A stretch of DNA of 60,349 bases, filler included, from Hausera hauseri (Eukaryota), in the NCBI GenBank assembly GCA_046269625.1. It is 12 parts of 12 records of this genome, joined end to end, with 100 filler letters (N's around TTAATTAATTAA, not from the genome) between each part and the next. Parts side by side here need not be neighbours in the genome. Positions count along the whole stretch, not along the records: positions 14,613 to 18,567 come from JBJURY010860299.1; 11 more parts are not named here. The stretch is one strand, 5' to 3'. The notes under the pieces are model-generated. The model saw only the letters and a program-made list of their open reading frames with translations, was not told the DNA's origin and did no database searches. Below are positions 2,613 through 57,362 of the stretch, in pieces (position 1 is the first letter of the stretch; every line of letters begins with the position of its first letter). Made by a program: the position numbers and the translations under genes.

Positions 2613-3550
2613 TTACAATGCCACATGCCTGTGAGATAGTGTGCTTATTTTATCACCCAGGATCTGCCACTTATCGTCCATCCAATTTAGACTGTTCTGA
2701 AGCCTTACAGTTCGGATCTCATGAGCCCAAGACTGGATCATGCGAATCTCTGATATAATGTGGGTCTGTTCATGCAAACCTCTCACATAATTATCGAAGC
2801 TGATCTTCTTGGCCAAGGTCGCCCTTTGAACCCCTTTAACCTCTTCTTTACTTGGCCACATACGTCAGTTGCATACATTTTGGACCTAAGAGCTACAAAT
2901 CGCGAGATCACTGCTCCATTTACCTCATTTTTGAATTTCCCAAGGACCGTTTTGTTGGCGATTGAATAGTTGAGATGCTTATTCGGATAGTCAGACGTAT
3001 CCATATGCTGAGCCAACTTAGCAAAGTCCTCATAAATATCCTCTGTATGGATCTGATGGATGAAACTATTAGTATCCATGTACATCAGTTGTATGGACTT
3101 GAATGTTGACACCATGATGTCATAGTGGAATTTGTACATCAGAGTCTTTGACACATCCTGCCATGGTCTTGCCTAAAACGCTGTTGTTGTACAACTTGAA
3201 CTGGTCCTTCTCAAAGTCGTTCTTGGCATTGGTCCACAGCTTTGTATTGAGGTCTATATATGGCTGCAGCCAGTTGGACTGGCTGAACTGCAGGGCCCGA
3301 TGGATCTCAGTAATGCGGAGTCCATTTCTGACCACCTGCTGGAGATTTATACAGCGGACTACATACCTCTCCCTACTATCCAGATGGCAGAGCAGCTTTC
3401 TATGCTTTCCATGGGGCAGTGGCTTGCTGTCAAGGAGAATAGGAACCTGTTCATACCTTGTGTGGATTCTATGTGGATATTCCACATCCACCTGCAGTAT
3501 GTAGTCTGTATGCCCACTGGGATCCACGTCCAGTATATGGATGTCTTCAG
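2613..3550 (-). pseudogene. Polinton/adintovirus protein-primed DNA polymerase B, C-terminal fragment with an internal deletion
   Basis: Motifs KNDFEKDQFKLYNNSVLGKTM, LMYMDTNSF, LGKFKNE, VALRSKMYA and KGVQR. Closely similar to 42030-42780 but lacking about 180 bp near 3155. Confidence 0.9.
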
Positions 3551-10475: not shown

Positions 10476-13400
10476 TATTTAATGTTTTCAATTTAAAGTT
10501 AACATTTACTTTAATTTGTTTAAATTTAGAAATGTTCACAATATCCCATGTATTGCATCTCTCGCATACATGGGGCGGCAAATCAGTACAATCAACAGAT
10601 GGCGAAATATTACAGTGTCGAAATGGACACATACCTGTGTCCGACGTGTAATATTTCAGCCAAATGTCCGCACCCCGATTTTTATGAGATGCACGAGCAT
10701 TATCTCAGACCGTTTACACGGTCGAAGAAGATGATGTAGTGCATTGCTCCGTGTACCCACGGTACTGTAAAAGTACAGTGCACGATGTCAGATCGTACGT
10801 GGATATAAAAGCGAACATGTCGGTGGCAAAAACAAAAACAACGGAATTGAGACATGTTCTGCAAAATGTGCTCAACCGGTTGGAATTAGAAGTGGAGAAA
10901 TTCAAACACCGCCACCAACACCATCACTGCAAAGTACAATATTATGCACTTGTAGAATTTGAAAACGTTGAAGGTGAAAGGAAACAATAGTTCCTGTCAC
11001 ATCGAGCTGTACTTTATACCAATGATTTTATTGCCGACGTTGGCAAAAAGGTCGAGGAAAAAATCGCCCACTACACGGAAAAGGGTAGTGGGTGGCGAAT
11101 TATACAAATTGTCACCCTCGGTATTATCATAACGAAGTCCAGTGATATAATATATTTGTCCGGGCGATCATTCAGACCGACACCTGCAGCTCTGAAGCAA
11201 TCTCTGGTGGTAGTGAATGTAAAAAATACTAACGATGAATACTGTTTTCTTTACAGTATTCTGGCGGTATTTAAATATGACAAAGTGGACAGACATAATG
11301 CATCTCCAAATAAAAAATATAAAAATATGAAAATATTTTTCCAAATTGCATTTCTATGAACGCTGGATGCAGACGAAACTCAAGAATATTCCGACTTTTG
11401 AACGGCGTAATCCGACATTGGCAATCAACGTGTTTCGGTACCACACAATAGTAGAAATACCAGTGGATGAAGAAATTTACAAAAATCTTCATGTGGATAT
11501 AATCTATAGTAGTCGGAACCCAAATGGCCGCTCAGTAAAATTGTTGCTACTAGAACGAAAAGAAAAATACCATTACATTGCAGTGACAAATCTGGACAGA
11601 CTACTGTACATGGAGAATGACCATTTTCTCCAAAAACGGATATAGTGTAAATGGTCTCCTGTATGCCTTCATGGATTCAGATCGGAAACAACATGGGAGA
11701 AACATGTGACTCTGTGCAGACAAAATTCGTCAGGAGCCACCAAGTATGTCATGCCCGTCAAAGAGCATCTCAGGTTCACTGATTGGTCAAAAACACAGAG
11801 TCCATCATATGTAGTATATGCCAATATCGAAGCTGTCTTTCCACGGCACAACATGTTCCAATAGCCGCCTGTATGTTGGTTGTCCCAATAAAAGCCGCAG
11901 GTCGTCAACCTCAATAATATGTTTTCCACGGATGGAATTGTGTACGCAATTTCTTGCAGCAGTTGCTAACCACAGTGGAAAGTGAAATCGCACCCTGGTA
12001 CAGTAGAAATAGCAATAAACCCTTGATGTGGACAGATGAGGATGAAGTCCTGACGTTGGCAGTCACAGATGCATGTTACCTGTATCACAGAATATTACCG
12101 TTTGATGCACAGGAACGGCTCATAACAGATCACGACCATTTTACTGGTCGATATCTCGGAGCAGCATGTAATTCATGCAATTTGGCAAGGCGTGTGCGGC
12201 CATTCCTGCTTGTGGTATTTAATAACTTCAGGAGTTATGATTGTCACCATATTTTGAAATGGGCAGTAAACGGATTTCCGCACTGGGAACTATCCATAAT
12301 TCCAACTACGATGCAGAAATACCTGTCACTGTCTGCTCCTATAAACAGGCTCCAGGTAGGCTTTCTTGATTCATTGCAATTTCTCAATAAATCTCTGGCA
12401 AAGTTGGTAAATGCATTGCTAGATGTGCCGATAGAACTGACACAGTTCCCCGCACATATTGCACGCAACGAAGGCATATTTCTTATGACTTTGCAACATG
12501 GTATAAACGACTCTGGACAGCAGAGGAATTACCGCCGCGATGGACAGGTATTACAGAAGATAATACCGAAAAGCACGAAGGCCTTGGACAGAACTCGGCT
12601 GTACAAACATGTTGGATTACATGCTGCAGTATCTTAACTGGACATGTACCTGTTGGTCGATGTGTTCCAGGCGTTTTTGGCGAAGGCGTTGGCTGAAGAT
12701 ACGTTGGAGCCACTCAACTTTTATTCCATATCGGGAATGAGTTAGAGGTCAGCTCTAATGTCACTGGACCGAAACATTGAGCTTCTTCAAGGTCCATAAA
12801 TGTACCGGCTGTTTGATGTTGTTATTGGAGGCGGTATGACGTTTGTCAAGAAGCATCATGTCCGTGCTACCGATGCCACATCACTGCTGTATATTGATAT
12901 TAGTAACCTGTACGCGCTTTCGCAACCCTTGCCGTATAGTTCATTCGAATGGGTTCTCGACAGACAAGATCTGGATGACATAATGGCCAACCTGCCACGA
13001 GCTGACATTTCAGGCTTATTCGTATACCTGATGGAGGTCGATCTCGTGGCACCAGATGAGCCGAATAACGTTTTGGACAATTTACCGGTCGCATTATTTA
13101 ACCAATGTCCGCAAGGCTCAAAAGTAAAAAAACTGCTCATGACGCATAAACCGAAGCTGAATTACATAGTCCATTGGCGTCTGATACAGTTTTGCATGCA
13201 GCACGGTGTACGCGTCACACAGCTGCATCGTACAATCAGATTTTCTAAGGCTCCGATATTCAATGCGTGCATAGATGGGAATTCCGAGAAACGAGTTTCA
13301 GCTTGTACAAAGTTCAAAAAGGATTACTACAATTTGAAAAACAATTCTCTGTACGGAAAAACAGTGGAAAATCTGAAAAGGTGGCTAAATGTGCGCCTAT

Positions 13401-14120
13401 GCAATAGCGAAAAGCTGTTGGTCACGTATACGAGTAAGGCGCAGTTTCGGAGGTCAATGCACATTGCCGATGGATTGGTTGAGGTGCTGTTAAACCGGGA
13501 AAAAGTAGTTCTTGACCGGCCAAGTTTCATCGGACAAGTGGTATTTGACATGAGTAAGTTGCGAATGTACTAGTTTTAGTATCGCGACTTGGCACGTTAC
13601 CGGCAAATATTCGACGGCTGTGAAATCAGTATCGTTGCCAGTGACACAGACAGCTTTTTCATTGAGCTGAAAAACGTCAATCGCGACCAACTGCTTCGGC
13701 AAATGACAGAGGATTGACTACTGGACACGTACAACTAACCACCGGATTATCCATTGTACAGCAGCGCGATTACCAACAAAATCGGCTGCTTACAGTATGA
13801 AAGTGAATGTTGCGTCTAGTATCGGAAATTGATATTCCTACGTCCAAAGTGCTACAGTCTTCTGACGGACTCTGGACCGAAAATTCGGGCAAAAGGAGTC
13901 TTGCTGAGACAGATGGAAATCGACCACAGTGATTATCGCCGCACCTATGAAGAATGAGGAGAATGAAAGGTTGTTGTGTCACAAATGATTATACGATCGA
14001 TTGAGCACAAGAAGTACACGTTGGCCGACACAAAAGTCGCTTTATCATGCGATGATGATAAGCGTAAGTGGGTGAGGCGAAATAAGAGTGTGGCTTACAG
14101 ACATTGGCATTTGAAATAAA
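10476..14120 (+). pseudogene. Near full-length decayed Polinton/adintovirus pPolB with an endonuclease VII/HNH-like insertion
   Basis: Motifs GSGW, VVNVKN..DEYCFLYSILA, DHDHFTGRYLGAACNSCNL, FLDSLQFL, LLYIDISNLY, NLKNNSLYGKTVEN, DTDSFF and DDKRKWV, with many stops and frameshifts. Confidence 0.92.
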
Positions 14121-14612
14121 ACACGCACACGCATGCAGAATTCGGTGCAGACAGACAGAGCAAATTACTGTGACAATTCATTGTGATCTGTTTGTATTGG
14201 ATAAATAACGTATATTGTTCGAAGTTTTCGCCTTTTGTTTTATTATCATTTAATTTATTTATATATATTCATCTATTTAGCTTCGTGTGACGAGACACAA
14301 TATAAAAAATCAATAAAAATTATTAATCGTCATAAGCTAAAATCAAAAACAAAGTAAGTCAAATAAGCGTAAACTTTCCCGGCTTCCATACTGGTGATTT
14401 AACGCCATGCAGATTCTTGTACCCATTCAACTTCAAAAGTATATGACCTTTAGCTCCTTCCCGTGGCAAAACAGCTGTTGCTGCTGCTGTTTCTCTGCCA
14501 TGTACACTGACANNNNNNNNNNNNNNNNNNNNNNNNNNNNNNNNNNNNNNNNNNNNTTAATTAATTAANNNNNNNNNNNNNNNNNNNNNNNNNNNNNNNN
14601 NNNNNNNNNNNN

Positions 14613-15350
14613 AAGGCTCAAACCATTGCTCAGGCATTTGTAGAAGAAATTGTGTTTAATTATGGAGCTCCTACTAAACTATTAACAGATCAGGCTCCGA
14701 ATTTTACAAGAGAAGTAATGGCGGAGATTTCAAAGATATTCCATATATTACAGTTGAAAACTACTCCATACCACCCACAAACAAATGGAACAGTAGAAAG
14801 ATTCAACGGAACCTTAACCAACATGCTTGCAACTATGGTTAACGAACGACAAGATGACTGGGATGAATACATTAAACCATGTTTATTCGCCATAAGGAAT
14901 ACAATCCATCCTGCGACAAAAGAAACTCCGTTCTATTTAATGTATCTTAGAGATACGCATATGCCAGTTGATATAGACTTTAAAATGCCCGTGTACCATC
15001 TAAAGGACATGGAGTATAGAGAGTTACTAGAAGAAAAACTTGGGTACGTGTGGAACCTAGCTTTACGACACATAAAAATATGTCAAAAAGAGTATAAAAA
15101 TAGATATGACAAGAAAGCTAAGTCCCACAGTTTTAAACCTGGAGACAAAGTTATGTTACATACACCGTTGAGTAAGAAAGGCAGAACACCAAAGTTAGAC
15201 AGACCATACAAAGGTCCATATATGATCCAAAAAGTAGATGAAACAAACATCTACTTAAATAAAAACAGAAGAAATAAAATAGACCCAATAAAAGTGCACG
15301 TAAACAGATGTAAGCCGGCACCAATAGGGTCAAGGATTAGGAGTGAAAAC
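14613..15350 (+). CDS. Ty3/gypsy integrase core and C-terminal (GPY) domain, 5'-truncated by the contig edge
   Basis: Motifs YGAPTKLLTDQAPNF, TTPYHPQTNGTVERFNGTL, DWDEY, ETPFYLMY, KLDRPYKGPY and VHVNRCKP. Frame is open from 14613. Confidence 0.95.
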
Positions 15351-15353
15351 CCT

Positions 15354-18290
15354 AATTTATTATTGGTAACAACCTTTATGATATTAAGTTTAATTACTTG
15401 TGTATCAACTCAATCTCTGGATGTCAAGTATAAAGCTGTACAAGTGGGAAAATACCCATGTATAAAAATTATAGCTAACCGAAACTTAACAACAGACGAA
15501 TATATACATATATTCATATCGAAGTTACCTATTGTGGAAAAAGCCACACCAGAAAATTGTGATTTGTACCACAATCATTCAATACATATTTGCTGCGGAC
15601 TTTCATTTGGAGAAACGTACAGGATTCAATACGCAACGGAAAAGAGCGATTAGAGCTATAGAACGTATTTCTCATACCCCGGCACTACGCATTATTTTTA
15701 TCGACCCTACTTTCTTATTTTATTCTATTCCAAGATCATAAAAAACGGACCTTGTGTAACCGCGGAACCAGATGTTGTAATTACAGAGTATATAAAATTC
15801 AAGTATATAATATTTGATGGAATTAATAGTATACATTGTGAACCAAATTATCAGAATCCATATATGTGTTGCCCTATTGTTTTTGATAAACAGTATACGA
15901 TATATTACTGGACCACGTATGATGGTTATACATGGTCAAAGACAGCGGATGGTCCAGAAATAATAGTAAAATCCCCGGTAAAAGTAATTTCTACGTCGAA
16001 AATAACCACTTTGGCAACTCAATCAGGTACATTAACTACATCACATAAAATGGTAACCAGTCCTATTACAGAACCTAAGAAGAGTATTAAGGAACTGGAC
16101 ATAATTATTCAATCAACAACTTACTCATTAATTATCACAGTGTCTGACTTAAAGAACACGAATATAAAGTTTGAATGTCACTTCAACCATAAAATTATAA
16201 GCGAAGGAGTTTTAACCCCGGAAGAACCAACATCAGTTTGTATGCCCTTAAAGGCCGACACGAATTATAAAGTTGTTATAACGGAATTAGATGAAGATGG
16301 GCAGACTTTACAAGTTGTTAGAAGAATGGAGAAAACATTAAAACTATTAACGGTTACCACGACGAAAGTTATAAAAACAACCACCACACAAACTTTATTA
16401 GAAATTTCCAATAGATATCTCTGGATGATTATTACTCTAGGAGTCCTTTTAATTTTAATAATCATATTGTTACCAATAATAATTTATTGTAGTAGAGTAA
16501 GACATAGAATGCGCAAGACCAACAAAATTATACAACAACTAAAATTATTGAGGGAAGGACCCCAAGACGAGGATTTAATTGATAATATAAATGCGCCCTT
16601 CCAAGCTGAAAAGCTATCAGAATATGAACGGCGATCTCGACCGTTAACAGATGTTACACTATGTATGTGTACATATATATGTAATAAGGCTGCAAAATTT
16701 TTAGCAACCTACCAAAATAAAGATAATTATAAAAAATCACAGGCTGCAAAACCTTTCGCAACCTATCATAAAATTATTTACAGAAATTTTCCATGGTTAG
16801 TATTGATATCTTTTATTTCAGTCCAAGAAGGAACCGAAACAGCCCAAAGAGCAAAGTCTTTCTATTATAATATCGCCTCCCATCTTAATTCCACTGAACA
16901 AAAAGATTATATGTATTACGGGAAAGCATCCCTAATACCCAATAATCTGAAAGGACACCTTGTCACTCAAAGGGCTGGTCTCATTATTAAACTTCCTAAT
17001 ACGTCTACTAAGTTATCGGATCTAATTGATATCTCAACCAAAACGACTGCGGTCTATATATCAGTCGTAAGAGCCAGTCTACAGTTAAAGAGCAGGGCCC
17101 ACAAAACCAACATTACAGATGTACTCGACGTGGTCCCCTTTTCTACTATTAGGATAGATCAGCGCCTTTACAAAAACGTCACAATCATATTACGGACATT
17201 CGGAGGGCCAAGCCCTATATTATATATCGAAGTCACAAGAAGAGAAAAGATCCCTCACCCAGAATCCGACATACCAATTTTCAATCTTCCTCTTCCGAGT
17301 AAAGACCAGCTAGAAAAAGGATGTTCCTTCTCCAGAACTCCTATAGTTCCAAGAGACCAAATCGTTATTGTCTCCGTAAACGTTGCATACCTAACAAAGG
17401 ATAATCGTTCGGAAGCTACCCTTACAGAAATTACCATCATGGATTTAGATAAAAAAATTATTGTCGATCAACTCGTCGTACCTCGAGAACGTGTAGATAA
17501 TTACAATACCCAGATAACTGGAATACGTGAGTTAGACTTAATCGGCCAAGCCGACCAATACCAAATCTGGCCCACGATCAGACATCAGCTCATAGGAAAA
17601 ATGATTGTAGCGATGGACATATTTAAAATTAACTCTCAAATCGCTCTATTTAACATGGATAGAATAATGGGTATTCGAGATCTGTATTATAATGATCAGA
17701 TAAACCCAGGAAAAGTATTGACCCAGAAACAAATCTACTTGAAATTTAACGATATTAAATATCCAACAAGAACGAAGGACAAAGCGTTAGTCATGCTCAA
17801 TATGTATAATTCCCTCAAAGAATATCAACGTAACAATACAAAAATAAAATATGAATCAACAACTTATGAAGTCTCGAATTTACAATCCATCGACGAAACC
17901 TCTGTAACAACTCTTGAATCAATGGATATCGACGATCTCGTGAACATAACAGAATCAGAACCACAGACAGTAATCGATATCGATCAACATATACAGCCAT
18001 CATCTATCCAATCAGGATCCTCAATAAAAGTAAAACATGAACCTTCGTCAACTATTGTATCCAACAAACCAGTAACTGTTGACCTAACAAAAAACAAGAA
18101 GAGAAAAGTTCCTAAAGATCAAACCATCACCCTCAAACTCAAATTCAAAAGAAAAGGACTATGGCGTCACTATGAATCGTCCAACTATCGTGTGGAAAAT
18201 GGTACCCTAGAAGTTTACCCAGCGATGCTGAGGACAGCATCGACTGAGGGGGGAAATATTGGAACAATTGACATCGATAACAGTCAATAA
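15354..18290 (+). CDS. Env-position cargo fused in frame to integrase: signal peptide, 3 FN3-like domains, Thr-rich linkers, TM helix, and a cytoplasmic region with a REX4/ISG20-like pseudo-exonuclease; one in-frame TAG at 15651-15653
   Basis: Hydrophobic NLLLVTTFMILSLITCVSTQS. FN3 strand-F-like motifs GLSFGETYRIQY, PIVFDKQYTIYY and PLKADTNYKVVI. TM YLWMIITLGVLLILIIILLPIIIYC followed by RVRHRMRK. DEDDh-fold pattern at about 17361-17820. The 70 codons at 15654-15863 are stop-free and in frame with both listed ORFs. Confidence 0.8.
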
Positions 18291-18567
18291 TGACATTATT
18301 ATTTTGTGTCGACTGATCCACGCTCCGTCTAGTGAATTAAATTAACTTGAATCAATCTACACTCATTGATCTGCACTGACTTAATGTCATCTAATATATT
18401 TATGTAACCACAAATTTAACATTATTTATTTTGATCGTATTTGCAATTTTTTTTGTGTCATTAACATTTTTCTATATGTAATCTCATTTTTCTGTTTTTG
18501 CATGGAATTACATACGTCTGAGAAGGGACTATATAAACCCTTGTAATACTGTTGTGATATGACCAAA
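18246..18567 (+). repeat. PPT and 3' LTR (truncated by the contig end)
   Basis: GAGGGGGGAAA at 18246-18256, followed by AT-rich non-coding DNA with TATATAAA near 18530. Confidence 0.65.
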
Positions 18568-23554: not shown

Positions 23555-25171
23555 CTAATCACAGTGATTCTTAATCTTATTTAAAAACGATACCAATTTT
23601 TTCTTCGTCTGTTCATCAAAACATTTGCTACGTTTAGCCAAATCTAATTTTTCGCTTATTAAACTTTTCATATGTTTTTTTATACCTGATATATTTTTCT
23701 GAAATTCTTCAATGGCTCTATTGTTTGTTTTAATGTCATTTCCTTCGATTTCTAGAAACGTTTTAAGTCGTAGAAATGCTTGTAAATGACTGATAAACAA
23801 ACGGCATAGTTTTTCAAGAATCTCCAAAAATTCATAAAGCACATACAGAGTAACCGATGAGTCATCCGGTAAATTGTTCAACAAATTTGTGTAACTTACA
23901 CTGTTCCTGTGGATCAGAAGTATTATATTCTGTCTATAAAGGACCAACTGCTGATCATTCAGTTCACTGATACGGGACGGGATATTCAACTTCTCGAAAT
24001 CAACACAAATCAGTTGAGACTTGGTCATCAATCTTTTTTTCCATCGTCCAATTATCGTATCCAAATCCTTTCTCAGAAATTTTCCCACCTTTCTCAGTTC
24101 CTTCATTGAACTGCAAAGTTCATCGGTGAAATAAACAAAGATATCTTCATAAATTTTCGCCGTATCATCTGCTGCTAATATCATACGTTCACCTGTTGTC
24201 TCGTCATACGAGAAATGAGTGTTGAACGGACATCGGCAGTTGTTGTAGAACATGATTTGTCGACACGATCTACATAATCGGTGCATGTAGCAATTCGGGA
24301 AGATGAATGGATCATTACTCGACAAAGGAATAACACACACAATACACTGATCTGGTGATGAGTTCAAATATTGTGAAATATTATCGAACTTATTCGAATA
24401 GCTGAGCAGAATGTGTCGAATACCAAATATATCATTTTCAATGAACATGATCTCTTTGTGAATTTCATCGTTCGATAGAATATGTTTATTAACAAGGTCA
24501 TGTATTGGACCAGGATCATGAGTTCCGGAAAATAGTTTGTCTAATTGATTCAACATAAATTTGATATTATTAATTTTACTATTGAACATTATGAGAACGT
24601 CTGCCAGCTGCTGCAATTGTTTGATGAGATGCAAATTAAATAGATAGCTCGCTTTTCGATAATCAAAATGTTCATGGAGACTCGAAAAATGCCCATTCAG
24701 ATCGTCAATATCGTCAGAAATTTTAGCCAAAGACAGGAATTCCTCGTTACCATTCTGTAGTAATTGATCAAGGATATTTTTGAACGTGTTTATTTCGTCT
24801 TCATTTGTCAAATAATCGGGACTGTTGTTCTGTAAAATGTCCTTTAGCATTCTATACGACTTCATCAGCGTTTCCAAATAGCTAAGTTCGATTTGAAAAT
24901 ATCCGACAAGGAAATTTTCACAGGATTCTGTCACCGATATTTTAATGTATTCCTTGTAATTCATCGTTTCCGTAATGGTCAGATCTGTTGAGTAGATCTT
25001 TATCGATTTTGAAATTAGTCGATCCAATGGGCAAATGTAACTTGTCTCATTCCACTTTTTGAAACACTCATAGCAATAGACATGACAACATGGCTCTAAT
25101 TTTACCCTATCTTCAGATAAACTGTAGCAGAAGACACATTCATCCACTGCATTTTGTTCCATATTTTGCAA
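23555..25171 (-). CDS. Intronless protein with two RING-type zinc fingers, each followed by a long helical region (probable E3 ligase)
   Basis: RING1 CVFC..PCCHVYCYEC..CPLDR; RING2 (degenerate) CIVC..NCYMHRLCRSC..CPFN. Uninterrupted 538-codon ORF. Confidence 0.8.
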   Translation of the reverse strand: MQNMEQNAVDECVFCYSLSEDRVKLEPCCHVYCYECFKKWNETSYICPLDRLISKSIKIYSTDLTITETMNYKEYIKISVTESCENFLVGYFQIELSYLETLMKSYRMLKDILQNNSPDYLTNEDEINTFKNILDQLLQNGNEEFLSLAKISDDIDDLNGHFSSLHEHFDYRKASYLFNLHLIKQLQQLADVLIMFNSKINNIKFMLNQLDKLFSGTHDPGPIHDLVNKHILSNDEIHKEIMFIENDIFGIRHILLSYSNKFDNISQYLNSSPDQCIVCVIPLSSNDPFIFPNCYMHRLCRSCRQIMFYNNCRCPFNTHFSYDETTGERMILAADDTAKIYEDIFVYFTDELCSSMKELRKVGKFLRKDLDTIIGRWKKRLMTKSQLICVDFEKLNIPSRISELNDQQLVLYRQNIILLIHRNSVSYTNLLNNLPDDSSVTLYVLYEFLEILEKLCRLFISHLQAFLRLKTFLEIEGNDIKTNNRAIEEFQKNISGIKKHMKSLISEKLDLAKRSKCFDEQTKKKLVSFLNKIKNHCD

Positions 25172-25681
25172 ATGATAAATACCGATAACATTTTAGCTAA
25201 TATACGGAAAAATATTACATAATGGAATATTACGTATTATAAAATATTTACATAATATAAATTTCCGCTTTATTATTTTCGCATAAACTTCATTTCTTTT
25301 CCTCTTTAATTATTCGTTTTCAATCTAACTTTATTTGTCATTCATTCCGTTGTCAGAATTCATTAGCAACGTATACTGGATACAGAATTTCATTTTGAGT
25401 AAAGTCCAAATAACGCAACTGCAGCATTCACATGTAGAAATGTGGCCATAAACTTGAACAATTGTTCATTCACCCCCTCCCCATATGCACACAAATTTTG
25501 AATTTCCATAAACTTTCCGCTAATTTTATTCATTCGAATTATCGAATTAATATTCCATATCCAATATGTAGGGTCATCGATTTTTTTACGCGGCAAGGTT
25601 TTTCGATTTCCGCGGCATATAAGCAATTTTATAAGGGTTTCCGCGGCGCGAAGTAAATCATAGATTTTAGAAGAAAAAACA

Positions 25682-26595: not shown

Positions 26596-26696
26596 NNNNN
26601 NNNNNNNNNNNNNNNNNNNNNNNNNNNNNNNNNNNNNNNTTAATTAATTAANNNNNNNNNNNNNNNNNNNNNNNNNNNNNNNNNNNNNNNNNNNNT

Positions 26697-27296
26697 CAAG
26701 GAGATAGGCCTACAGGTTTTTTACCGCAGTTTAACAGAGATAGAGAATTAGGTAGAACAGTACAACCTATTCCGAATCATCCTGAATTAAGACCTGGAAA
26801 TGATCAATGGTTCCCACGTGAAAGAGTTCAAGGTAATCCTTTAGGAACAGACACTGAACGCGACAAATTATTTTTAGAAACCTTGCATATTTATAAGACA
26901 GTTAAGGATTTGCAAGTGGGTCGATATGGTGATTTGCAAAGAGATGCCGACCATTATGATGGTATGCATCATGATCACTGGCCATCTGCGGCGGCAATCA
27001 TTAAACATATAGAAGATAGTAGACGCATAGAATTATCTCGATCAGAAAGGAATGAAATTATAAAAAATACAAATGCTATTGTTATTGTGGAAGAGTTACA
27101 TTTAAAAAGTAGAACATTTGGTGGAAGGAACACAGCAGTCCAAATAGAAACTGATTCAAAAGATTTGGCTACTGCTGCCGCTAAAGATGCCGAAGTATTT
27201 AGGGAAAATGCTTTGAAAAGAGGGTATGAACCTGAAAAAATTGAGGAAGCAATACGAAAAATGCACGATCTAAATAGAAAGTGTGGATTATATTGA
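26697..27296 (+). CDS. C-terminal part of a polymorphic toxin; nuclease domain of the type found in S-type pyocin (S3-like) and Rhs C-termini
   Basis: Frame is open from the contig edge. Motifs VGRYGDL..DGMHHDHWPS..AIVI..LH..SRTFGGRNT..DSKDL..IEEA..MHDLN..GLY. Confidence 0.7.
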   Translation, partial: QGDRPTGFLPQFNRDRELGRTVQPIPNHPELRPGNDQWFPRERVQGNPLGTDTERDKLFLETLHIYKTVKDLQVGRYGDLQRDADHYDGMHHDHWPSAAAIIKHIEDSRRIELSRSERNEIIKNTNAIVIVEELHLKSRTFGGRNTAVQIETDSKDLATAAAKDAEVFRENALKRGYEPEKIEEAIRKMHDLNRKCGLY

Positions 27297-27299
27297 TAG

Positions 27300-27809
27300 G
27301 TGAGTAAAATGAAAAATATTACATTTGAACAAAAATTGTTGAACATTCTTGGAAAAGATAATGATGATGATGCGGTAAAAAAATTTGTTGAGGATATTGA
27401 CGAAAAGCCTACAGTTGGAATTGAAGAATTTGAGCTACCAAATGATAGATTGTATTATGAATTCTCAAATTATGGTCTTGCGTTAATGTTTAATAAAAAA
27501 GGAAAACTAACAACAATATATGTACACATAATTGGTAGCAAAGGATTTAATAGATTTAGCAAAGATTTTAATTGGTTCATTAATCAAGAACGTGATTGTG
27601 ACAGGGTAAATATTATAAATAACCTTGGAAAACCTTCTGATGAAAATAATGAAGAGTATTTTTATTATGGGTATTTAACGCCTAAATGGATAGTATACGA
27701 TTACAAAGACTATACAATTCATTTTACATTTTATGGTGCAAGAGATAAATTGGCACAAATAACAATAATGACTCCAGACGTTGCACCTGGAAGAAAAAGT
27801 GCCGCTTAA
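27300..27809 (+). CDS. Cognate immunity protein (DUF6392-like)
   Basis: Starts 3 nt after the toxin stop. About 169 aa, acidic/aromatic, with an L..LGK..YY....GL.L.F....L..I pattern and LGKP..WI.YDY. Confidence 0.6.
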   Translation: MSKMKNITFEQKLLNILGKDNDDDAVKKFVEDIDEKPTVGIEEFELPNDRLYYEFSNYGLALMFNKKGKLTTIYVHIIGSKGFNRFSKDFNWFINQERDCDRVNIINNLGKPSDENNEEYFYYGYLTPKWIVYDYKDYTIHFTFYGARDKLAQITIMTPDVAPGRKSAA

Positions 27810-27818
27810 ATTTCGATA

Positions 27819-28067
27819 TTAAGCTACCAGGTAGTTAAGTTCTTTTTTTTCTTCTAGTTCATCATAAAAGATATCAGGACGGAGATCTTTTTCAGTGACT
27901 TCGCCTTGTGATATGGCTACCAATTTTCTAACAACAGATGGTGATATTGCAGTTCTTCCTTTTAACCAATCAGTTATATTCCCTCTGCTGACGCCAATTT
28001 TACGAGCAAGTTCAGCCTGAGACCCAACCTTATTAATTATTTTAACTAAATAACTTTTTCTATCCAT
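27819..28067 (-). CDS. Cro/YdaS-like HTH regulator
   Basis: GSQAELARKIGVSRGNITDWLKG...GEVTEKDLRPDIF is a classic Cro/YdaS signature. Confidence 0.9.
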   Translation of the reverse strand: MDRKSYLVKIINKVGSQAELARKIGVSRGNITDWLKGRTAISPSVVRKLVAISQGEVTEKDLRPDIFYDELEEKKELNYLVA

Positions 28068-28099
28068 AACTTTATCTTAACACATATATTAAAAAAATG

Positions 28100-28182
28100 T
28101 TGACATTGTACTTAAATCAGTACAAACTAGAATTGTTTTGAAATGTACTGCGATGCTCAGAGCTTGGTACCTCTGGCATCGC
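28100..28182 (+). promoter_or_regulatory. Divergent promoter region with an operator palindrome and a leader hairpin
   Basis: TTGACA at 28100; perfect 7-bp palindrome TTGTACT-N6-AGTACAA at 28106-28125; TAGAAT at 28128; stem GCGATGC..GCATCGC at about 28150-28182. Confidence 0.6.
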
Positions 28183-28216
28183 TTATCACTAACGCCACGC
28201 AATAGGAGCCAATGAA

Positions 28217-28486
28217 ATGAGTACTTTTTTAAGTATACCCAAACCAAAAAAGTTTAGCAACACACATAAACCACCAACTAACCAGCCTGAACGACAAGAA
28301 CTTCACGGATTGATCCGTTCTATTCTGCAATATCGCCCACCTCAGGATCACTTATACCCAGACGATGGCTTTGACTGCTTAGCCTTTGAGTATCCTTACG
28401 GCCATTCAACATACATTCGCGATCTCACCTCGGAAGGCTGTTTTTTCGATATGGAGCAAGGAGCAGAACATGAACACATTCAATAA
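28217..28486 (+). CDS. Phage hypothetical protein
   Basis: AGGAG RBS upstream; first ORF of the operon. Confidence 0.5.
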   Translation: MSTFLSIPKPKKFSNTHKPPTNQPERQELHGLIRSILQYRPPQDHLYPDDGFDCLAFEYPYGHSTYIRDLTSEGCFFDMEQGAEHEHIQ

Positions 28487-28691
28487 GGAACAATTTAAGG
28501 ACGAGTTGTACGAGTTCATAACAGCCAGAATTAACGCTGTGTATCCCGACTTAGTGAGAACTGGTGGAGATGTCGGGAACTTTCATAGGGAATTTCTACA
28601 AGCTGTTTTCTTCATAGTGGAGGAGACTGTTGTCCAGAACTTTCATGGTTGGAAGTGGTACCTAGAAGCCAAGTACAGGGGAGGTAAATAA
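28470..28691 (+). CDS. Phage hypothetical protein (MNTFNKEQF...)
   Basis: AGGAG RBS before the ATG at 28470; overlaps the preceding ORF. Confidence 0.55.
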   Translation: MNTFNKEQFKDELYEFITARINAVYPDLVRTGGDVGNFHREFLQAVFFIVEETVVQNFHGWKWYLEAKYRGGK

Positions 28692-28692
28692 G

Positions 28693-29874
28693 ATGTGTAT
28701 ACAACTAAACAAAATTGAGGTGACAAAAACCTACAGACTTCCTGCTTTTAGCAGGGAGTTTGTACTAAACGACTGTATAATAACCAGTACCCGCATGGGT
28801 ACAACCCTTAATGATAAATTTAATTCCTTCAGTTACTGCGTAGTAGAAGGAATTTACGTTATGAATGGTATTAGTGGATTGCAACAAGAAGCACAAAAAC
28901 TTGCTCTTAAAAAGGCAGTAAACGAATTGGGCGGAATAGATAATTTTGCCGCGGAAGCAGATGTATCAAGGTATACAGTTAAAAATATCCTATACGATCC
29001 AACTAAATATGGTACTTTAAGATGTGCTATTCTGGCGGTTCTAAAATGTGGTGTTGATATAAGTATAGTATCGCCAGGAACGTCTAAATTAAACGCTCTT
29101 TTTAAACAAGTTATCTCACCGCATATAAAGCACATTCTTCTAAAAAACATCATCTTTAATCCAAACATTCATTATCTAAATTGCTGTCATGATGAGCACG
29201 AGTTTATGCTCGTTGATGATCGTAATGAGATCATATCTGGCAAGCAAAAGAAGTTGGAATCAGAACGAAAAGGAGAACTGATAACAGTCGTAAAACATAT
29301 CAATTTGGACGATTTATGGGATGGAAGGACGGGTATTTATAGCTATGGTATTTGTATCAACGACATCCGAAAATGGGAAATTGGAGTCAAGTTATTTGAC
29401 CGATACACTAAAGGATCGGGTTTTAGGAGCGATATTGAAAAAAATATCTTAGAAAATTGGTCAAAAAGTAGTCAACCTACGCAAAATTTTGCGCAGGTTA
29501 AAACTCCAAAACGGCAACCAGAAACATTAGATAAGGTGTGTGACATAGTTGAACTCAACAGAACAACTTTTCGCCAACTCAACAAAATATGCCTTTCTGA
29601 AACTCATCCACTAATAGGTGCTGTTGCCAAAGGACTTTCCGTAAATAAAGCCACCGATGCATTAAATGCATTTTTTCACGAAAACTCCGCACAACGTGAA
29701 TCAATACTTCACAGATTGTTGAATGGTGAAGTTGACGACTCGCTATTGCAAGAAATTAAAGCAGAGGCAAGGCTCCAAGGCTCCAAGGCTCCAAGGCTCC
29801 AAGGCTCCAAGGCTCCAAGGCTCCAAACAATGTTAACGGAATATGGGGAGAGGCGACATGAACATACACACTAA
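28693..29874 (+). CDS. Cro-like HTH plus ParB-N-like protein (start may be 28861) with a C-terminal 8-bp repeat tract
   Basis: HTH LKKAVNELGGIDNFAAEADVSRYTVKNIL; ParB-like MLVDDRNEIISG; GAAGGA before the ATG at 28861. Confidence 0.6.
   Translation: MCIQLNKIEVTKTYRLPAFSREFVLNDCIITSTRMGTTLNDKFNSFSYCVVEGIYVMNGISGLQQEAQKLALKKAVNELGGIDNFAAEADVSRYTVKNILYDPTKYGTLRCAILAVLKCGVDISIVSPGTSKLNALFKQVISPHIKHILLKNIIFNPNIHYLNCCHDEHEFMLVDDRNEIISGKQKKLESERKGELITVVKHINLDDLWDGRTGIYSYGICINDIRKWEIGVKLFDRYTKGSGFRSDIEKNILENWSKSSQPTQNFAQVKTPKRQPETLDKVCDIVELNRTTFRQLNKICLSETHPLIGAVAKGLSVNKATDALNAFFHENSAQRESILHRLLNGEVDDSLLQEIKAEARLQGSKAPRLQGSKAPRLQTMLTEYGERRHEHTH
29771..29826 (+). repeat. (GGCTCCAA)7 simple sequence repeat inside a CDS
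   Basis: Seven exact 8-bp copies. Confidence 0.95.
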
Positions 29875-30049
29875 CCCATGTGTTTTAGTCAGAGCGGTAC
29901 GAGTTCTTGATTATTGCTTGGGAGATCAAGGGAACGCTTTAGTAAAAGATGTCATTAACGGACACGTATTTAAGACTTCGATATCCGATATCAAGCGTTA
30001 TACCTACCAAGGAGAAGAACTATTACTAGTAACGGGAGACATACAATGA
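29858..30049 (+). CDS. Phage hypothetical protein
   Basis: GGGGAGAGG RBS; ATGA overlap with recT. Confidence 0.55.
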   Translation: MNIHTNPCVLVRAVRVLDYCLGDQGNALVKDVINGHVFKTSISDIKRYTYQGEELLLVTGDIQ

Positions 30050-30921
30050 GTGCAACAATTATTCATCAACAGTCTCATGGAATCATGGACTTTAGCAAGT
30101 TTGAGAACGCATGGAAGGCTTGCGAGTTTATAGCAGGTTCTTCTTTCTGTCCAAAAGAGTTTAGAAGTAAACCTGGTGATGTGCTTTGTGCCATTCAATA
30201 TGGCACAGAAATTGGTTTGCAACCTATGCAGGCTTTGCAGAACGTTGCGGTGATTAATGGCAGACCGTGCGTGTATGGCGATACGTTGCTTGCTTTGTGT
30301 CAGTCTTCTCCTGAGTGTGAGTACATTCACGAGGAATATGACGAGAACACAGAAACAGCAATTTGTAGGGTCAAGCGTAAGGGGCATCCTGAACTTGTAA
30401 GAACGTTTAGCAAAAAGGAGGCTGAGGCTGCTGGGCTTCTAAAGCGAGAAGGGCCTTGGCGTACTTATATGAAACGGATGCTACAGATGCGCGCCAGGGG
30501 ATTTGGTCTAAGAGATGCGTTCGCTTTCCTTTTAAGAGGCATCATCACTGCTGAAGAAGCAAAAGACTATCCAATGCCACAAAAACAGTTTCAAAAAATA
30601 ACACCTATCAATTCGAGCATTCAAGTAATTGAGCAACATCAAACAATGACGGAAGAAACCAAGCATCATTTATTGAGTTTAGTTAAAGCTGTCAATTTAA
30701 ATAATGAACGAGTTCAAAAAATTACGAAATTTGCAAAAGTTGAACACTTAGAAGATATAAGCGAAAAAATAGCTTTAAAGGTGATAGGACAGCTTGAAAA
30801 AGAATTTTCTAACGTTATGAATCAAGAAGAACCTTGTGAGCTTTGTGTAGAAATTCAGCAAGTAACTGAGGAAACCAAAAGTAGTGATGTCGCAAGCATG
30901 ATGGAGATAAAACAACCATGA
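30046..30921 (+). CDS. recT: RecT/Red-beta family single-strand annealing protein
   Basis: KPGDVLCAIQYGTEIGLQPMQALQNVAVINGRP...GPWRTYMKRMLQMRARGFGLRDAF...EEA. Confidence 0.9.
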   Translation: MSATIIHQQSHGIMDFSKFENAWKACEFIAGSSFCPKEFRSKPGDVLCAIQYGTEIGLQPMQALQNVAVINGRPCVYGDTLLALCQSSPECEYIHEEYDENTETAICRVKRKGHPELVRTFSKKEAEAAGLLKREGPWRTYMKRMLQMRARGFGLRDAFAFLLRGIITAEEAKDYPMPQKQFQKITPINSSIQVIEQHQTMTEETKHHLLSLVKAVNLNNERVQKITKFAKVEHLEDISEKIALKVIGQLEKEFSNVMNQEEPCELCVEIQQVTEETKSSDVASMMEIKQP

Positions 30922-31136
30922 ACAAAGAAAAAACAAAAAAAACCATAAATTACAGTTTAACCATTCATGAAAAAATGAAGGATCGTATTTACTTAATTGA
31001 AGATACAGTTACAGAAATAAGAAAAATGATAGATGAAATTGATAATAAATTAGAATTAATCAAGAAACATATATGGAAAATAGATGACGATATTAATGAT
31101 TCTAGAGAAGCACTTCGAGGAGAAAATAATGCTTAA
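30918..31136 (+). CDS. Small coiled-coil phage protein
   Basis: ATGA overlap, GGAG RBS and heptad pattern. Confidence 0.6.
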   Translation: MNKEKTKKTINYSLTIHEKMKDRIYLIEDTVTEIRKMIDEIDNKLELIKKHIWKIDDDINDSREALRGENNA

Positions 31137-31389
31137 TGAAGAAGATGTTCTCAAAAGTTTAAACGCTGCGTGCTCTGCATTTGGAGCAATAACAATCCAC
31201 AGCAGTGCAGCCTCTACGCGCTGTACAAAAATGATTGCCGATAAGCTTTGCAAAGACATAAGCAATTGGGAGATTGGCAAACGAATTTCCCAATATCGTT
31301 ATAAGATTGAGCAAACGTTGAACTGGATAAAACCGCTTGAGGCTGAGTTTTTGAAAAGGAGGGAAGCAAATGAGCAAGAAGGTTGTTGA
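31129..31389 (+). CDS. Phage hypothetical protein (MLNEEDVLKS...)
   Basis: GAGGAG RBS; overlaps its neighbours. Confidence 0.55.
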   Translation: MLNEEDVLKSLNAACSAFGAITIHSSAASTRCTKMIADKLCKDISNWEIGKRISQYRYKIEQTLNWIKPLEAEFLKRREANEQEGC

Positions 31390-31672
31390 TTATGAGATTT
31401 TAATATATGCCGATATACTAGTTACCATCACATCCTTGAATGTCACTCAGCAGTTATAGAATATCTGCCTTTCATGGATCCATCTTTTGTTCAAGTCCTA
31501 GGTACATGACAANNNNNNNNNNATAGAAACCTTTGAGGAAATAATTAAAGATAGCCTTGAAGATGGTTATGAATTATATGGATTTCCTTGGTCAAATATA
31601 GATGAAAACAAGAAAGAATGGTTTTACCAAGCAATGGTTAAGTATGAGGAATGCAAGGAGGATTCCAAGTGA
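31370..31672 (+). pseudogene. DUF1737-like small protein interrupted by an insertion and an assembly gap
   Basis: MSKKVVDYEILIYAD before the insertion and IETFEEIIKDSLEDGYELYGFP...FYQAMVK after the 10-N gap. Confidence 0.55.
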
Positions 31673-32011
31673 ATTTTTTTCTAAAAGATCATCAAGAAAC
31701 CCATCGTTACGAGAAAAACAAAAAGCGTATATCCATATTGGAGCTTTTACGAATTGCAATATATGCAGCAATTGTAATGTTCGTAATTCATTTGATTTAT
31801 AAAGGGTCTTCTTACTACGACAAGAAGAGTGAACCAACGAAAGAGGTCTTAAAAACGGAGGTGAGAAATAGTTATGTTTAAAAGTGATGTGTATTTGTTA
31901 ACGATGTTATTTAGTTTGAGTTTGTGTGTGTTTGGAACTGGAATACTGGTTGGTCAGCATATTGGTTTAAATTCCACACATGGTTATGAACGTTTATTTA
32001 GTAAGGAGTGA
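31669..32011 (+). CDS. Two small single-TM phage proteins (31669-31881 and 31874-32011)
   Basis: Hydrophobic segments IAIYAAIVMFVIHLIY and YLLTMLFSLSLCVFGTGILVG; RBSs and overlaps. Confidence 0.5.
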
Positions 32012-32460
32012 ACAAAATGGCAGCACAAGTGAATGAAAAGCAATTTGAACTAGCAAAGCCTGGAAGGTATGAGTTTTATATCTCAGGCGTTATTGATACT
32101 AATAAGGACGGAATACCATTAACTTTAAGCAATGGACATCCTTATAGACGTATTAGATTAACTGTCATAGACAAAGATGATTACTGCACTGATATATACG
32201 ATGTTGTGTTTGATTCTGACAGGGTAAAAGAAATATTTGAGTGTGTCGGAAAGCCCGTATCATCCACCACAAAAATTGATTTAGACCATCTTTACGATCT
32301 AAGAGGGCATAGAGGTTATTGCATGGTTGGGATCAGGAAAAGTAAAAAGGAAGACTATAACGACCAAAACGACGTTAAGTGCTACATCCCTAAAAGCGTA
32401 TGGAGCGACAAAAGTTCTAGTGGAGACAGCATCAAGTGTGTCACAAACGGGTATGTCCAT
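32008..32460 (+). CDS. DUF669-like phage ssDNA-binding protein, with its 3' end replaced by non-phage DNA
   Basis: FELAKPGRYEFYI..IYDVVF..DLRGHRGYCMVGI..YNDQNDVKCYIP. The listed ORF tail (IHFNFNKSFHLLF..) is read from the AT-rich foldback. Confidence 0.6.
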
Positions 32461-32470
32461 TACAACATAC

Positions 32471-32964
32471 ATTTCAATTTCAATAAATCATTTCATTTAC
32501 TTTTTACATTTTTGCATATTTTAGCTATTTTTGATTACTGCTTTGATTATTTTAAATTTAGAATAAAAAGAAGGTAAATATGAAATGGAAGCCGAAAAAA
32601 GGAACTGATGCTATTCTGAAAGAATGTAAGTAACTGGTTAAACTCTAGAAACTTGTTGAAATAACTGTGACATAAAAATCATTCATTTTACAGTACCAGA
32701 GGATTCTTCACGAGTTGGAAACAAAGTCATTAAAAATGAAACTGTAAAATAAATGATTTTTATGTAACAGTTATTTCGACAAATTTTTAGAGTTTAACCA
32801 GTTACTAACATTCTTTCAGTATAGCATAAGTTTCCTTTCTCCGGTTTCCATTTCATATCTGCCGCATTTTTATTCTAAATTTAAAATAAAACAAAGCAGT
32901 AATCAAAAATAGCAAAAATGTAAACGAAAATTTAAAAAATAAATGAAATTATTAAAATTGAAAT
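32471..32964. repeat. Imperfect inverted duplication (arms 32471-32694 and 32741-32964) of eukaryote-like DNA
   Basis: Arms align at roughly 85% by eye. The left arm contains a canonical 68-nt intron-like segment GTAAGT...TTTTACAG (32626-32693). Confidence 0.85.
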
Positions 32965-41826: not shown

Positions 41827-42027
41827 NNNNNNNNNNNNNNNNNNNNNNNNNNNNNNNNNNNNNNNNNNNNTTAATTAATTAANNNNNNNNNNNNNNNNNN
41901 NNNNNNNNNNNNNNNNNNNNNNNNNNAAAAAGGTCAATTTGGAATTCTGATCGATTTTTTGATTTTTTGATTCAGATTTTTGGGTAATTAAGAGATCCTA
42001 ACAAACCTTATAAAAAACAAACTCACT

Positions 42028-51874: not shown

Positions 51875-51986
51875 TTTAGACGAGGATACTGAATACGATA
51901 GAACAATAAAAGTACAAATTAATTATCCAATATATGACAGTTGAGAAACATCTATGCCTAGCCGTGGATAGGAAGAAACTTTACCT

Positions 51987-57287: not shown

Positions 57288-57362
57288 GTAAGTAGCAAAC
57301 GGAAATTAACATTAATTACTAGGCCAATGATTTTAACCTAGCACTCATTTTTATGAAAATTA

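Follow-up and report, generated by a model that had tools for sequence, protein, structure and literature searches.

When invertebrate LTR elements are infectious, the property is usually linked to viral fusogens that they have captured or, as recognized recently, to tiny FAST-like proteins; the locus considered here raises the question of what an adhesion- or receptor-like membrane protein might do in the env position of such an element. The locus is the contig JBJURY010860299.1, contained as a whole (3955 bp) at positions 14613-18567 of the window, that is, of the entire 60,349-nucleotide stretch analysed, in which 12 unlinked contigs are separated by N-spacers; the contig carries the finding on its own. 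What it holds is the 3' half of an animal Ty3/Gypsy LTR element that is present in multiple copies. Frame +1 from 14613 comprises 1225 codons with one internal TAG stop (15651) and a TAA end at 18288-18290, as the preliminary description had stated, and its open part of 878 codons (chance probability ~4e-29 at the contig's composition) is the longest open frame among the 12 contigs, the runner-up having 545. The order within the frame is integrase, signal-like segment, three FN3-like domains, Thr stalk, transmembrane (TM) helix, AlkB-like domain and catalytically dead ISG20-like DEDDh fold. The features are as follows.

14613..15323, + strand: Ty3/Gypsy integrase, represented by the C-terminal stretch of its core and the GPY/SH3-like C-terminal domain, the 5' portion being lost at the contig edge (Pfam rve_3 E 1e-4; rve and SH3_Tf2-1 weak)
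15357..15410, + strand: internal signal-peptide-like segment, h-region followed by small residues as expected at a signal-peptidase site, predicted to be cleaved (KD scans; relatives have a similar segment in this position)
15423..15686, + strand: FN3-like repeat 1, Cys-patterned, holding the internal stop 15651-15653 (likeness to repeat 2; Pfam Fn3_Dep-1_3rd weak, E 0.04; low-confidence all-beta model)
15735..15974, + strand: FN3-like repeat 2 (likeness to repeat 1, model; low confidence on its own)
15975..16082, + strand: Ser/Thr-rich linker, 39% Ser+Thr (composition)
16092..16343, + strand: FN3-like domain 3, sharing homology with ectodomain repeats in relatives (pLDDT ~58-81; fold search; repeat profile)
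16335..16403, + strand: Thr-rich stalk, 43% Ser+Thr (composition)
16416..16526, + strand: TM helix (16416-16490) and basic stop-transfer segment (KD max 3.41; weak likeness to the TM/juxtamembrane region of L003, E 2e-4, Z=1)
16527..16800, + strand: cytoplasmic tail and linker, with internal LTDV (16644-16655), 31-nt direct repeat at 54-nt spacing, Met 16665 and short hydrophobic patch near 16788-16823
16800..17246, + strand: AlkB-like double-stranded beta-helix (DSBH) domain without the conserved metal-binding HxD motif (AF2 pLDDT 84.5, pTM 0.81; structure matches)
17358..17858, + strand: catalytically degenerate DEDDh 3'-5' exonuclease fold, ISG20/REX-like (ISG20 Z 17.1, ISG20L2 E 1e-7, SDN1 E 0.008)
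17859..18290, + strand: acidic, Ser/Thr-rich low-complexity C-terminal tail with basic KKRK patch (stop 18288-18290)
18246..18256, + strand: candidate polypurine tract (PPT), G-rich purine run without canonical TG after it
18257..18567, + strand: candidate 3' LTR start, AT-rich with a TATA-like motif at 18530, truncated where the contig ends

With KGPY visible, the integrase is of the retroviral type with a GPY/F C-terminal module and groups with Gypsy Pol, as is characteristic of Metaviridae; it is 48-52% identical to Pol polyproteins of PR-RT-RH-IN order. An integrase tree of 29 rows, for which 25 of 120 hits were used, places it within a 10-member clade at support 100/98. The PR-RT-RH-IN order is seen in clade member P0035 and RT-RH-IN in P0033 and P0038, the window contig itself starting inside IN. 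Linkage of integrase and cargo in other copies, which the preliminary description had called for as a check, is found in seven of the nine relatives (P0033, P0034, P0035, P0037 and P0038; L033 and L034 at the DNA level), where the integrase runs in frame into a signal and FN3-like repeats; the frame is therefore understood as a lineage trait, and a misassembly is unlikely. P0039 is a clade member without such cargo. There are elaborations of the scheme: P0033 has an extra protease and ankyrins between integrase and signal/FN3-like part, in P0035 a second signal-FN3-TM module precedes the protease, and extra proteases adjoin the signal in P0033, P0036 and L005 (L004 and L005 being one element). 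The last 22 residues of P0036 are the first 22 of the signal-ectodomain-TM ORF of L003, by which Pol is tied to that membrane ORF and to the AlkB/DEDDh ORF downstream. Neither gag nor an LTR pair was seen in any clade member, and no LTR pair is visible on the 3955-bp contig. As had been proposed, the window frame ends just beyond a purine run, but no TG follows that run; a search past the 3' end of the accessory ORF in 10 related loci gave no G-rich PPT. The FN3 profile is absent from the 97 loci L014-L110 except L033, and a search of viral_contigs returned only distant integrases (24-37%). Such elements also turn up inside bacterial MAG records (L033, L034).

The membrane module is delimited by the only two peaks at which 19-residue windows exceed a KD of 1.6, the signal-like segment (windows starting 15348-15363, maximum 1.88) and the TM (windows starting 16404-16449, maximum 3.41), the latter followed by SRVRHRMRK; the signal, the TM with basic stop-transfer and the Thr-rich linker and stalk thus stand as first described. 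The two Cys-patterned repeats are likewise real, their mutual score of 49 being reached in 0/1000 shuffles. Of the three FN3-like domains claimed, domain 3 is substantiated by model and fold search (fibronectin, VIA Z 8.4, rmsd 2.4, 76 aligned, a Z near the range of common folds; CD45 Z 8.3) and by a profile of 17 relatives' repeats, which scores it at 15.5 bits; the models of domains 1-2 are of low confidence individually (pLDDT mostly <50), and the whole ectodomain model, ~335 aa after the internal signal, aligns to tandem FN3 (Foldseek E 4.5e-6) and matches FN3 in three structure libraries. Compared with relatives by whole-ectodomain phmmer, the likeness is marginal (4/500 shuffles as high), the single-repeat profile alone being clear. 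Ectodomains of relatives are 14-24% identical to that of the window versus ~50% for the integrase, and L003/L005 have a different, Cys-rich type to which the FN3 profile finds no match. Asked whether the ectodomain resembles a fusogen or a described env, the model answers with FN3: no viral fusogen is among the structure matches listed, with domains 1-2 of low confidence, and between signal and TM there is neither an R-x-x-R furin site in the sequence as read nor a KD window >1.6 that could mark a hydrophobic fusion peptide. Structure-atlas matches stayed below 0.9 and serve as leads only (FN3 0.83; RNase_T 0.86), the word-indexed search with the 878-aa cargo gave no match, and the A1 profile search gave 3 proteins only. 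Pfam RIFIN and DUF matches on the TM region were set aside as compositional. Sequence and models together make it very probable that the element represents a Ty3/Gypsy lineage with a host-like type I glycoprotein, and not a viral fusogen, at the env position, in keeping with the preliminary view of a Gypsy integrase in frame with such a protein.

Contigs 85-99% alike number in the thousands and cover all 30 bins in two of three runs. Among the listed differences in the signal-ectodomain-TM part, 17/26 lie at third codon positions (p 0.0008) and 15/26 are synonymous against 33% expected (p 0.008), the variants having been chosen by support (top 40 of 781, of which 39 entered the test) and not at random. 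The membrane protein is supported as element-encoded and under purifying selection. Of the suggested recent activity or selection, the synonymous bias favours selection; activity would hold at most for the family, since the stop at 15651-15653 is private to the window copy and absent from nearly all other aligned contigs. Among the contigs listed, none bridges the IN-to-signal or the TM-to-AlkB joint with 31 letters on each side, and no single read or contig among those aligned spans the whole element. No RNA dataset was listed as containing the sequence. A contig of a second run matches 16653-16957 without gaps and with 2 differences, and the joints among aligned contigs suggest that the linker differs in other copies.

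At the tail and linker position, relatives have a stop and a non-coding spacer. The consensus for class I PDZ binding is [ST]-x-V, and the complete membrane ORFs of relatives end in it in 8/9 cases versus 8/113 of the other integrase-bearing hits; counted as distinct elements, seven of eight have a class I PDZ-binding-type end and the eighth a class II. The window copy is without a free PDZ-type end.

The part following the TM had been described as ending in a pseudo-exonuclease, and this is corroborated: the best folds are the DEDDh enzymes ISG20, Pan2 and SDN1 (162 residues aligned to ISG20 at rmsd 2.7), and no position of the catalytic set (D-x-E, D, H-x4-D; RNase_T, PF00929) is kept. The AlkB-like domain ahead of the nuclease had been overlooked; its model has the DSBH fold of the AlkB family (ALKBH6 Z 11.8, rmsd 3.0, 135 aligned; Ofd2 10.8; ALKBH7 10.4 and, by Foldseek, E 3e-5). 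In a sequence-level test, none of 23 sequences with the domain start has H-x-D/E at a shared position, and 8 have one, scattered. The AlkB-like/DEDDh unit constitutes a 30-member family, the 29 relatives of which carry the nuclease intact in 16 cases, H-x4-D included, degenerate in 11 and incomplete in 2. Repeated loss of nuclease catalysis is likely, for the dead and intact states require 4 changes on the tail tree, which has long branches. The family is absent from loci L014-L110 except the nuclease-only L014-L016, and the viral_contigs search found no tail relatives. These relatives are 160-684 aa long and none of their matches extends into ectodomain or TM; wherever DNA context is available the unit is a separate downstream ORF, preceded in 7/13 loci by a TTTGTGAY element at -139 to -154 that is missing in the window, and both modules are separate ORFs in all four loci showing both (L003, L004, L005, L012). 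Since relatives hold the accessory apart, the membrane module and AlkB-like/DEDDh unit in one frame represent a derived fusion, seen only in the window copy. The idea of a surface module coupled to an intracellular RNA-binding module as the system itself is weakened.

To account for this architecture, we propose that the internal signal directs the polyprotein into the ER, where signal peptidase releases the glycoprotein; Pol would remain attached through the signal stub until cleaved by the retroviral protease, at the place where some relatives have extra aspartic proteases. The PDZ motif would send the glycoprotein to cell contacts, where it may serve as a non-fusogenic attachment protein while particles pass to neighbouring cells, for example from somatic into germline cells. 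The accessory could trim or bind host silencing RNAs or element RNA, with an active form in about half of the relatives and a binding-only derivative in the window. Because both ORFs share one frame in the window subfamily, the dead module would there either face the cytoplasm as an appendage of the membrane protein or arise as a product of its own starting at Met 16665. This reading as a whole, in which an adhesion-type protein synthesized with Pol stands in for the envelope without being a fusogen and an accessory counters RNA-based defence, falls just short of an even chance in our estimate. The adhesion and spread function of the membrane protein is possible rather than probable, in that FN3 domains serve many uses and that entry into the next cell without a fusogen requires some other route.

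The same anatomy could serve counter-defence with no role in transfer, the FN3-TM protein posing as a host receptor of the cytokine or immune kind, either as a decoy or with dominant-negative effect (or blocking superinfection), the PDZ motif hijacking signalling scaffolds and the nuclease removing defence RNAs. Fold matches to CD45, gp130, IL-12 receptor and LAR besides fibronectin speak for it, as do the fast divergence of the ectodomains and their swapping between members, and the neighbouring gene for an ISG20/SDN1-like nuclease. DEDDh nucleases that blunt RNA sensing have viral precedents in arenavirus NP and coronavirus ExoN. We nevertheless hold the idea to be rather unlikely: fusion to Pol couples expression to particle assembly and better fits a structural role, the mucin-like stalk is typical of adhesion or attachment proteins, and no host ligand was found. 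A purely intracellular scaffold, with the membrane module anchoring Gag-Pol to ER or vesicle membranes within one cell or a syncytial germline and luminal FN3 domains for folding or sorting, draws on P0035, whose Pol would be anchored twice by modules on both sides of PR-RT-RH-IN, and on the extra proteases adjoining the signal; it leaves the 2-3 fast-evolving, exchangeable repeats, the stalk and the PDZ-type ends unexplained, and is improbable.

Still harder to uphold is a single signalling or RNA-tethering receptor composed of ectodomain and dead nuclease. The 878-codon open frame, the gapless second-run contig and the missing TTTGTGAY element would suit it, but the separate ORFs in 4/4 loci, the tail relatives reaching neither ectodomain nor TM and the hints of a differing linker in other copies argue against it. 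Misassembly, or a host gene taken up by chance, could be suspected from a short contig that no read or other contig spans; with the architecture shared by 7/9 independent clade members, multi-copy cover, synonymous bias and lack of introns, it is extremely improbable. Extending the proposal of a non-fusogenic envelope substitute, we offer tentatively, and as a somewhat doubtful generalization, that an adhesion-receptor module, captured and open to exchange (of FN3 or Cys-rich type, or of Ig type in a separate integrase clade), took the place of the envelope and is PDZ-steered to junctions for fusogen-free hand-over, while the AlkB-like/DEDDh unit disarms small-RNA defence; the window merger might then have given rise to an RNA-binding protein anchored in the membrane and able to carry element RNA to where cells touch.

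Regarding known systems, the comparisons below, except that with the rotifer elements, refer to the available portions of the papers cited. Errantiviruses with F-type or HSV/gB-type env (PMC13524379) likewise encode a signal-ectodomain-TM protein after Gypsy Pol, in the place of env, but the window ectodomain is tandem FN3-like, fused to Pol and without RxxR or internal hydrophobic peptide; the available main text of that paper makes no mention of fibronectin, exonuclease, DEDD or immunoglobulin. The MDG1-group sORF2/FAST-like insect elements (bioRxiv 10.1101/2025.03.14.642691) lack Env, have a single-pass membrane protein and provide a functional precedent in direct cell-to-cell transfer. The window protein, with its ~335-aa ectodomain folded in the model, lies outside the range of sORF2, which is an ORF of 60-210 aa with a 10-50 aa ectodomain, often N-myristoylated, and fusogen hallmarks, and fibronectin, PDZ or adhesion find no mention in the accessible text. 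Juno/Vesta of bdelloid rotifers (PMC5408684) share a 3'-5' exonuclease accessory ORF downstream of pol; theirs (ORF3) is RNase D-like DEDDy with intact catalytic residues and no TM, whereas the nuclease here belongs to the ISG20/REX-like DEDDh type, is linked to an AlkB-like domain, is frequently inactive and in the window degenerate, and comes after an FN3 membrane ORF. In orchids, Ty3/Gypsy elements that encode an m6A demethylase of AlkB type (PMC9289625) resemble the window in bearing an AlkB/2OG-oxygenase fold, but the plant enzyme is reported as functional and the window domain has no conserved HxD and is joined to a nuclease fold. The comparison with giant flatworm elements that had been recommended holds in part: Burro of planarians (PMC6431247), compared by description, also has many accessory domains in frame with Pol, recalling the ankyrins of P0033 and the gag-pol-interval membrane module of P0035, but its set is BIR, BCL2, MATH, SUMO, dUTPase and a fusogen-like env, with no mention of fibronectin or AlkB in the text at hand, and Pfam found no BIR or BCL2 in P0033-P0039. 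Tor elements of Oikopleura (PMC4402516) also have an ORF for a membrane glycoprotein, with an internal promoter driving accessory expression, yet their Env is furin-cleaved, has fusion-protein features and forms a separate ORF, in contrast to the membrane protein in the Pol frame here. The literature searched yielded no description of such a Gypsy lineage with an FN3-type membrane protein, in agreement with its being regarded as undescribed from the outset.

If the reading is true, a lineage retaining a host-like adhesion- or receptor-type ectodomain and a PDZ-type tail where env would sit adds a third solution to captured fusogens and FAST-like proteins, or else carries a transposon-borne receptor decoy. 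The naturally intact relatives P0035 and P0038 make it testable how env-less elements cross cells and reach the germline, and the AlkB-like/DEDDh unit, with its repeated loss of catalysis, becomes a candidate anti-silencing factor. The system hints at a retroelement that moves between cells, or deceives host defence, without a fusion protein.

The element under study is a single 3955-bp contig within the window of 12 concatenated contigs (14613-18567), and its frame +1 runs from the contig edge to the TAA at 18288, open apart from one stop at 15651. The 878-codon open stretch cannot be chance (4e-29). The initial 237 codons comprise the C-terminal half of a Gypsy integrase; they are followed by a signal-like segment, two Cys-patterned repeats resembling each other (0/1000 shuffles), a Ser/Thr linker, a third domain and a Thr stalk, then by a strong transmembrane segment (TM) with basic stop-transfer and ∼600 residues of tail. 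The anatomy given in the preliminary description, single internal stop included, is thus borne out. Judged by its integrase and the domain order of clade members, the element is Ty3/Gypsy; neither LTRs nor gag came to light.

Search of the integrase part against longer proteins gave 459 matches; among the best 120 examined, seven were set apart from the rest (42-52% identity, one 38% over full length). A careful 29-row tree, including the window, these seven proteins and two DNA loci (L033, L034), placed the window and its nine relatives in one 10-row clade with support of 100/98 (98 in a quick 121-row tree). In seven of the nine (P0033, P0034, P0035, P0037, P0038, L033, L034), integrase continues in frame into a signal-like segment and window-type repeats, with one internal stop in L033 and the L034 frame leaving the contig end. 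These relatives prove the linkage of integrase to cargo (signal-like segment through TM). A profile made solely of 17 repeats of relatives scored the window ectodomain at 18.1 bits, mainly from domain 3, and 1000 shuffles reached 10.9 at most. No such cargo was seen in the clade member P0039. P0036 carries integrase and two extra proteases, and its C-terminal 22 residues are the start of the membrane ORF of locus L003, whose Cys-rich ectodomain gave no match to the FN3 profile; in P0035, another signal-FN3-TM module precedes the protease.

Extra aspartic protease domains lie downstream of integrase in P0033 (together with ankyrin repeats), P0036 (two) and L005. A motif RYx(L/F)R, reminiscent of the foamy-virus Gag nucleosome-binding motif, directly follows integrase in P0033, P0034, P0036, P0037, L033 and L034 and occurs in 5/113 other integrase matches (rest of the best 120 of 459); the window copy is without it. 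In a separate integrase clade (100/99, careful tree), P0042, ending in a class I PDZ-type motif, and P0052, with a weak Ig-like match (Ig_3, E 0.024), also run from integrase into signal-ectodomain-TM, possibly a parallel capture. Eukaryotic Gypsy integrases in bacterial/archaeal MAG records (L033, L034, many of L035-L110) are host contamination of those bins.

Three public runs with three coded organism labels carry the stretch (4512, 771 and 73 contigs matched at 85%; 30/30, 30/30 and 22/30 bins covered); the run that matches best may be the source itself. These thousands of contigs, differing from the window contig predominantly by transitions, indicate a multi-copy family. The stop at 15651 is absent in essentially all depth (20, 11 and 4 contigs), so the stop is private to the window copy. 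Among the best supported 40 of 781 differences (39 used, break site excluded), 26 fall at third codon positions; in signal-ectodomain-TM, 17/26 do so and 15/26 are synonymous versus 33% expected, while all 4 in integrase are synonymous. The cargo is under selection, one of the two options raised earlier for the intact frame. No listed run contig bridged integrase-signal or TM-AlkB with 31 letters per side, and the integrase-cargo-tail linkage is therefore unproven from reads alone.

The ectodomain AF2 model (7-row alignment, X placed at the break; mean pLDDT 46.5) is reliable for domain 3 only, which matches FN3 of fibronectin and of CD45 (Z 8.4 and 8.3; rmsd 2.4); the whole model aligns with tandem FN3 fragments (E 4.5e-6). 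Of the three FN3-like domains proposed earlier, the third is well supported by modelling and domains 1-2 are probable. The remark that fusogen features were not obvious also stands: the ectodomain sequence lacks R-x-x-R, a hydropathy scan of it showed no hydrophobic peptide inside, and the viral structure library matches listed were FN3/Ig-like repeat proteins.

The last four residues of complete membrane ORFs are GTVV, STLV, ETIV, STLV, ETLV, VSEV, ETEV (two records of a single element, counted once) and GVWV. By the PDZ consensus, 7/8 distinct elements have a class I end versus 8/113 other integrase matches (of the best 120 of 459); several are close pairs, leaving about four independent lineages. 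PDZ motifs occur in the viral proteins HTLV-1 Tax and Env and HPV E6. The window copy has LTDV ∼55 residues past the TM, but its frame reads on, so either the subfamily lost the free end or the frame is a local fusion; contig joints in matching runs indicate that other copies differ over the TM-AlkB linker.

When 1.84 billion representatives were scanned in full with HMMER, 28 matched, every one to the tail, and another search gave one more. In the tail model (AF2, 22 rows, pLDDT 84.5, pTM 0.81), a beta-helix resembling AlkB (ALKBH6, Z 11.8), with no conserved HxD motif across the tail family, makes up the first domain, and a DEDDh fold like that of ISG20 (Z 17.1) the second. Of 29 relatives, 16 keep the DEDDh catalytic set intact, 11 have a degenerate one and 2 an incomplete one; that of the window copy is degenerate, agreeing with the pseudo-exonuclease of the preliminary description. 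The unit is present in 13 of 16 loci (L001-L013), with no RT or integrase within any of them, and what ties it to Pol is the window contig together with the overlap between P0036 and L003. In L003, L004, L005 and L012, which reach far enough upstream to include the membrane ORF and TM, it is a separate downstream ORF past an AT-rich spacer. The suggested coupling of a surface to an RNA module thus holds for the one frame here and not for these four loci. Because of analogy with ISG20, SDN1 and dead DEDD folds like Maelstrom (PMC5408684), the accessory is best read as a putative RNA-trimming or RNA-binding counter-silencing factor.

TTTGTGAY, a candidate internal promoter or splicing element, lies at -139 to -154 (∼145 nt) from the accessory ATG in 7/13 loci (L002/L003, L004/L005, L006, L008, L010; the L013 ATG is mis-set), is repeated in L002/L003 and is not in the window linker. 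Duplicated short coiled-coil ORFs separate membrane and accessory ORFs (L012:1773-2204, 2669-3058; L013:588-1166). A short hydrophobic patch precedes the AlkB-like domain at window 16788-16823 and at the N-termini of the nuclease-dead relatives P0002 and P0023. L011 resembles an internally deleted copy of L007.

The host is judged an animal from unlinked neighbouring contigs only, by these features:
55006-55545, minus strand, TRAF/MATH ORF
56520-57341, plus strand, MACPF-like ORF
23555-25192, minus strand, RING ORF of 545 codons
3547-4311, minus strand, dynein AAA-lid ORF

The gene-dense, phage-like contig 26696-32964, with a RecT-like ORF at 29974-30921 (E 0.009), is probably bacterial. Decayed Polinton-like sequence occupies 10476-14512 and 41927-46322 (DNA_pol_B_2 and endonuclease VII matches at 11918-12637), and pol fragments of broken Bel/Pao (DUF5641) and ordinary Gypsy elements lie at 35607-36829 (minus strand), 46851-48603 and 51972-52430. 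An ankyrin-repeat-like ORF (59862-60349), in a 59% GC stretch closing a 36% GC contig, is possibly a chimera or DNA from another organism.

The tested features of F-type env and sORF2 elements are not found in the window element, nor those of bdelloid DEDDy ORF3 in its nuclease-fold domain or of active AlkB in its AlkB-like domain. Each component has loose precedent: a retroelement nuclease ORF3 (PMC5408684), AlkB in an orchid Gypsy (PMC9289625), multi-domain Burro elements (PMC6431247), Tor env (PMC4402516), errantivirus env (PMC13524379) and sORF2 elements (bioRxiv 10.1101/2025.03.14.642691). Among the papers listed by literature searches, none described an FN3-TM-PDZ cargo joined to Gypsy Pol or an AlkB-like/DEDDh cassette, although an annotation may exist in Repbase, GyDB, Grohme 2018, subscription journals or supplements.

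Around the observed domain order, folds, lineage-wide integrase-signal-ectodomain-TM fusion and separate accessory ORF of relatives, a course may be proposed in which the polyprotein would be inserted co-translationally at the internal signal, the membrane protein released by signal peptidase and Pol freed through the element's own protease. Displayed on the surface at PDZ-scaffolded contacts, the membrane protein might then help particles reach neighbouring cells by non-fusogenic attachment, a reading we favour tentatively, at somewhat under even chances. The chief rival, a receptor-decoy or exclusion role, is rather unlikely, and an intracellular anchor considerably more so. Slightly less credible again is the single receptor of the preliminary description, with ectodomain and dead nuclease in one system, against which stands the two-part nature of what is conserved. 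An artefact is highly improbable, since the fusion recurs in frame in seven of nine clade relatives. The cargo is real and lineage-wide, and apparently undescribed so far; the conserved novelty is a Pol-fused FN3/PDZ membrane protein together with a separate RNA accessory, not one receptor.
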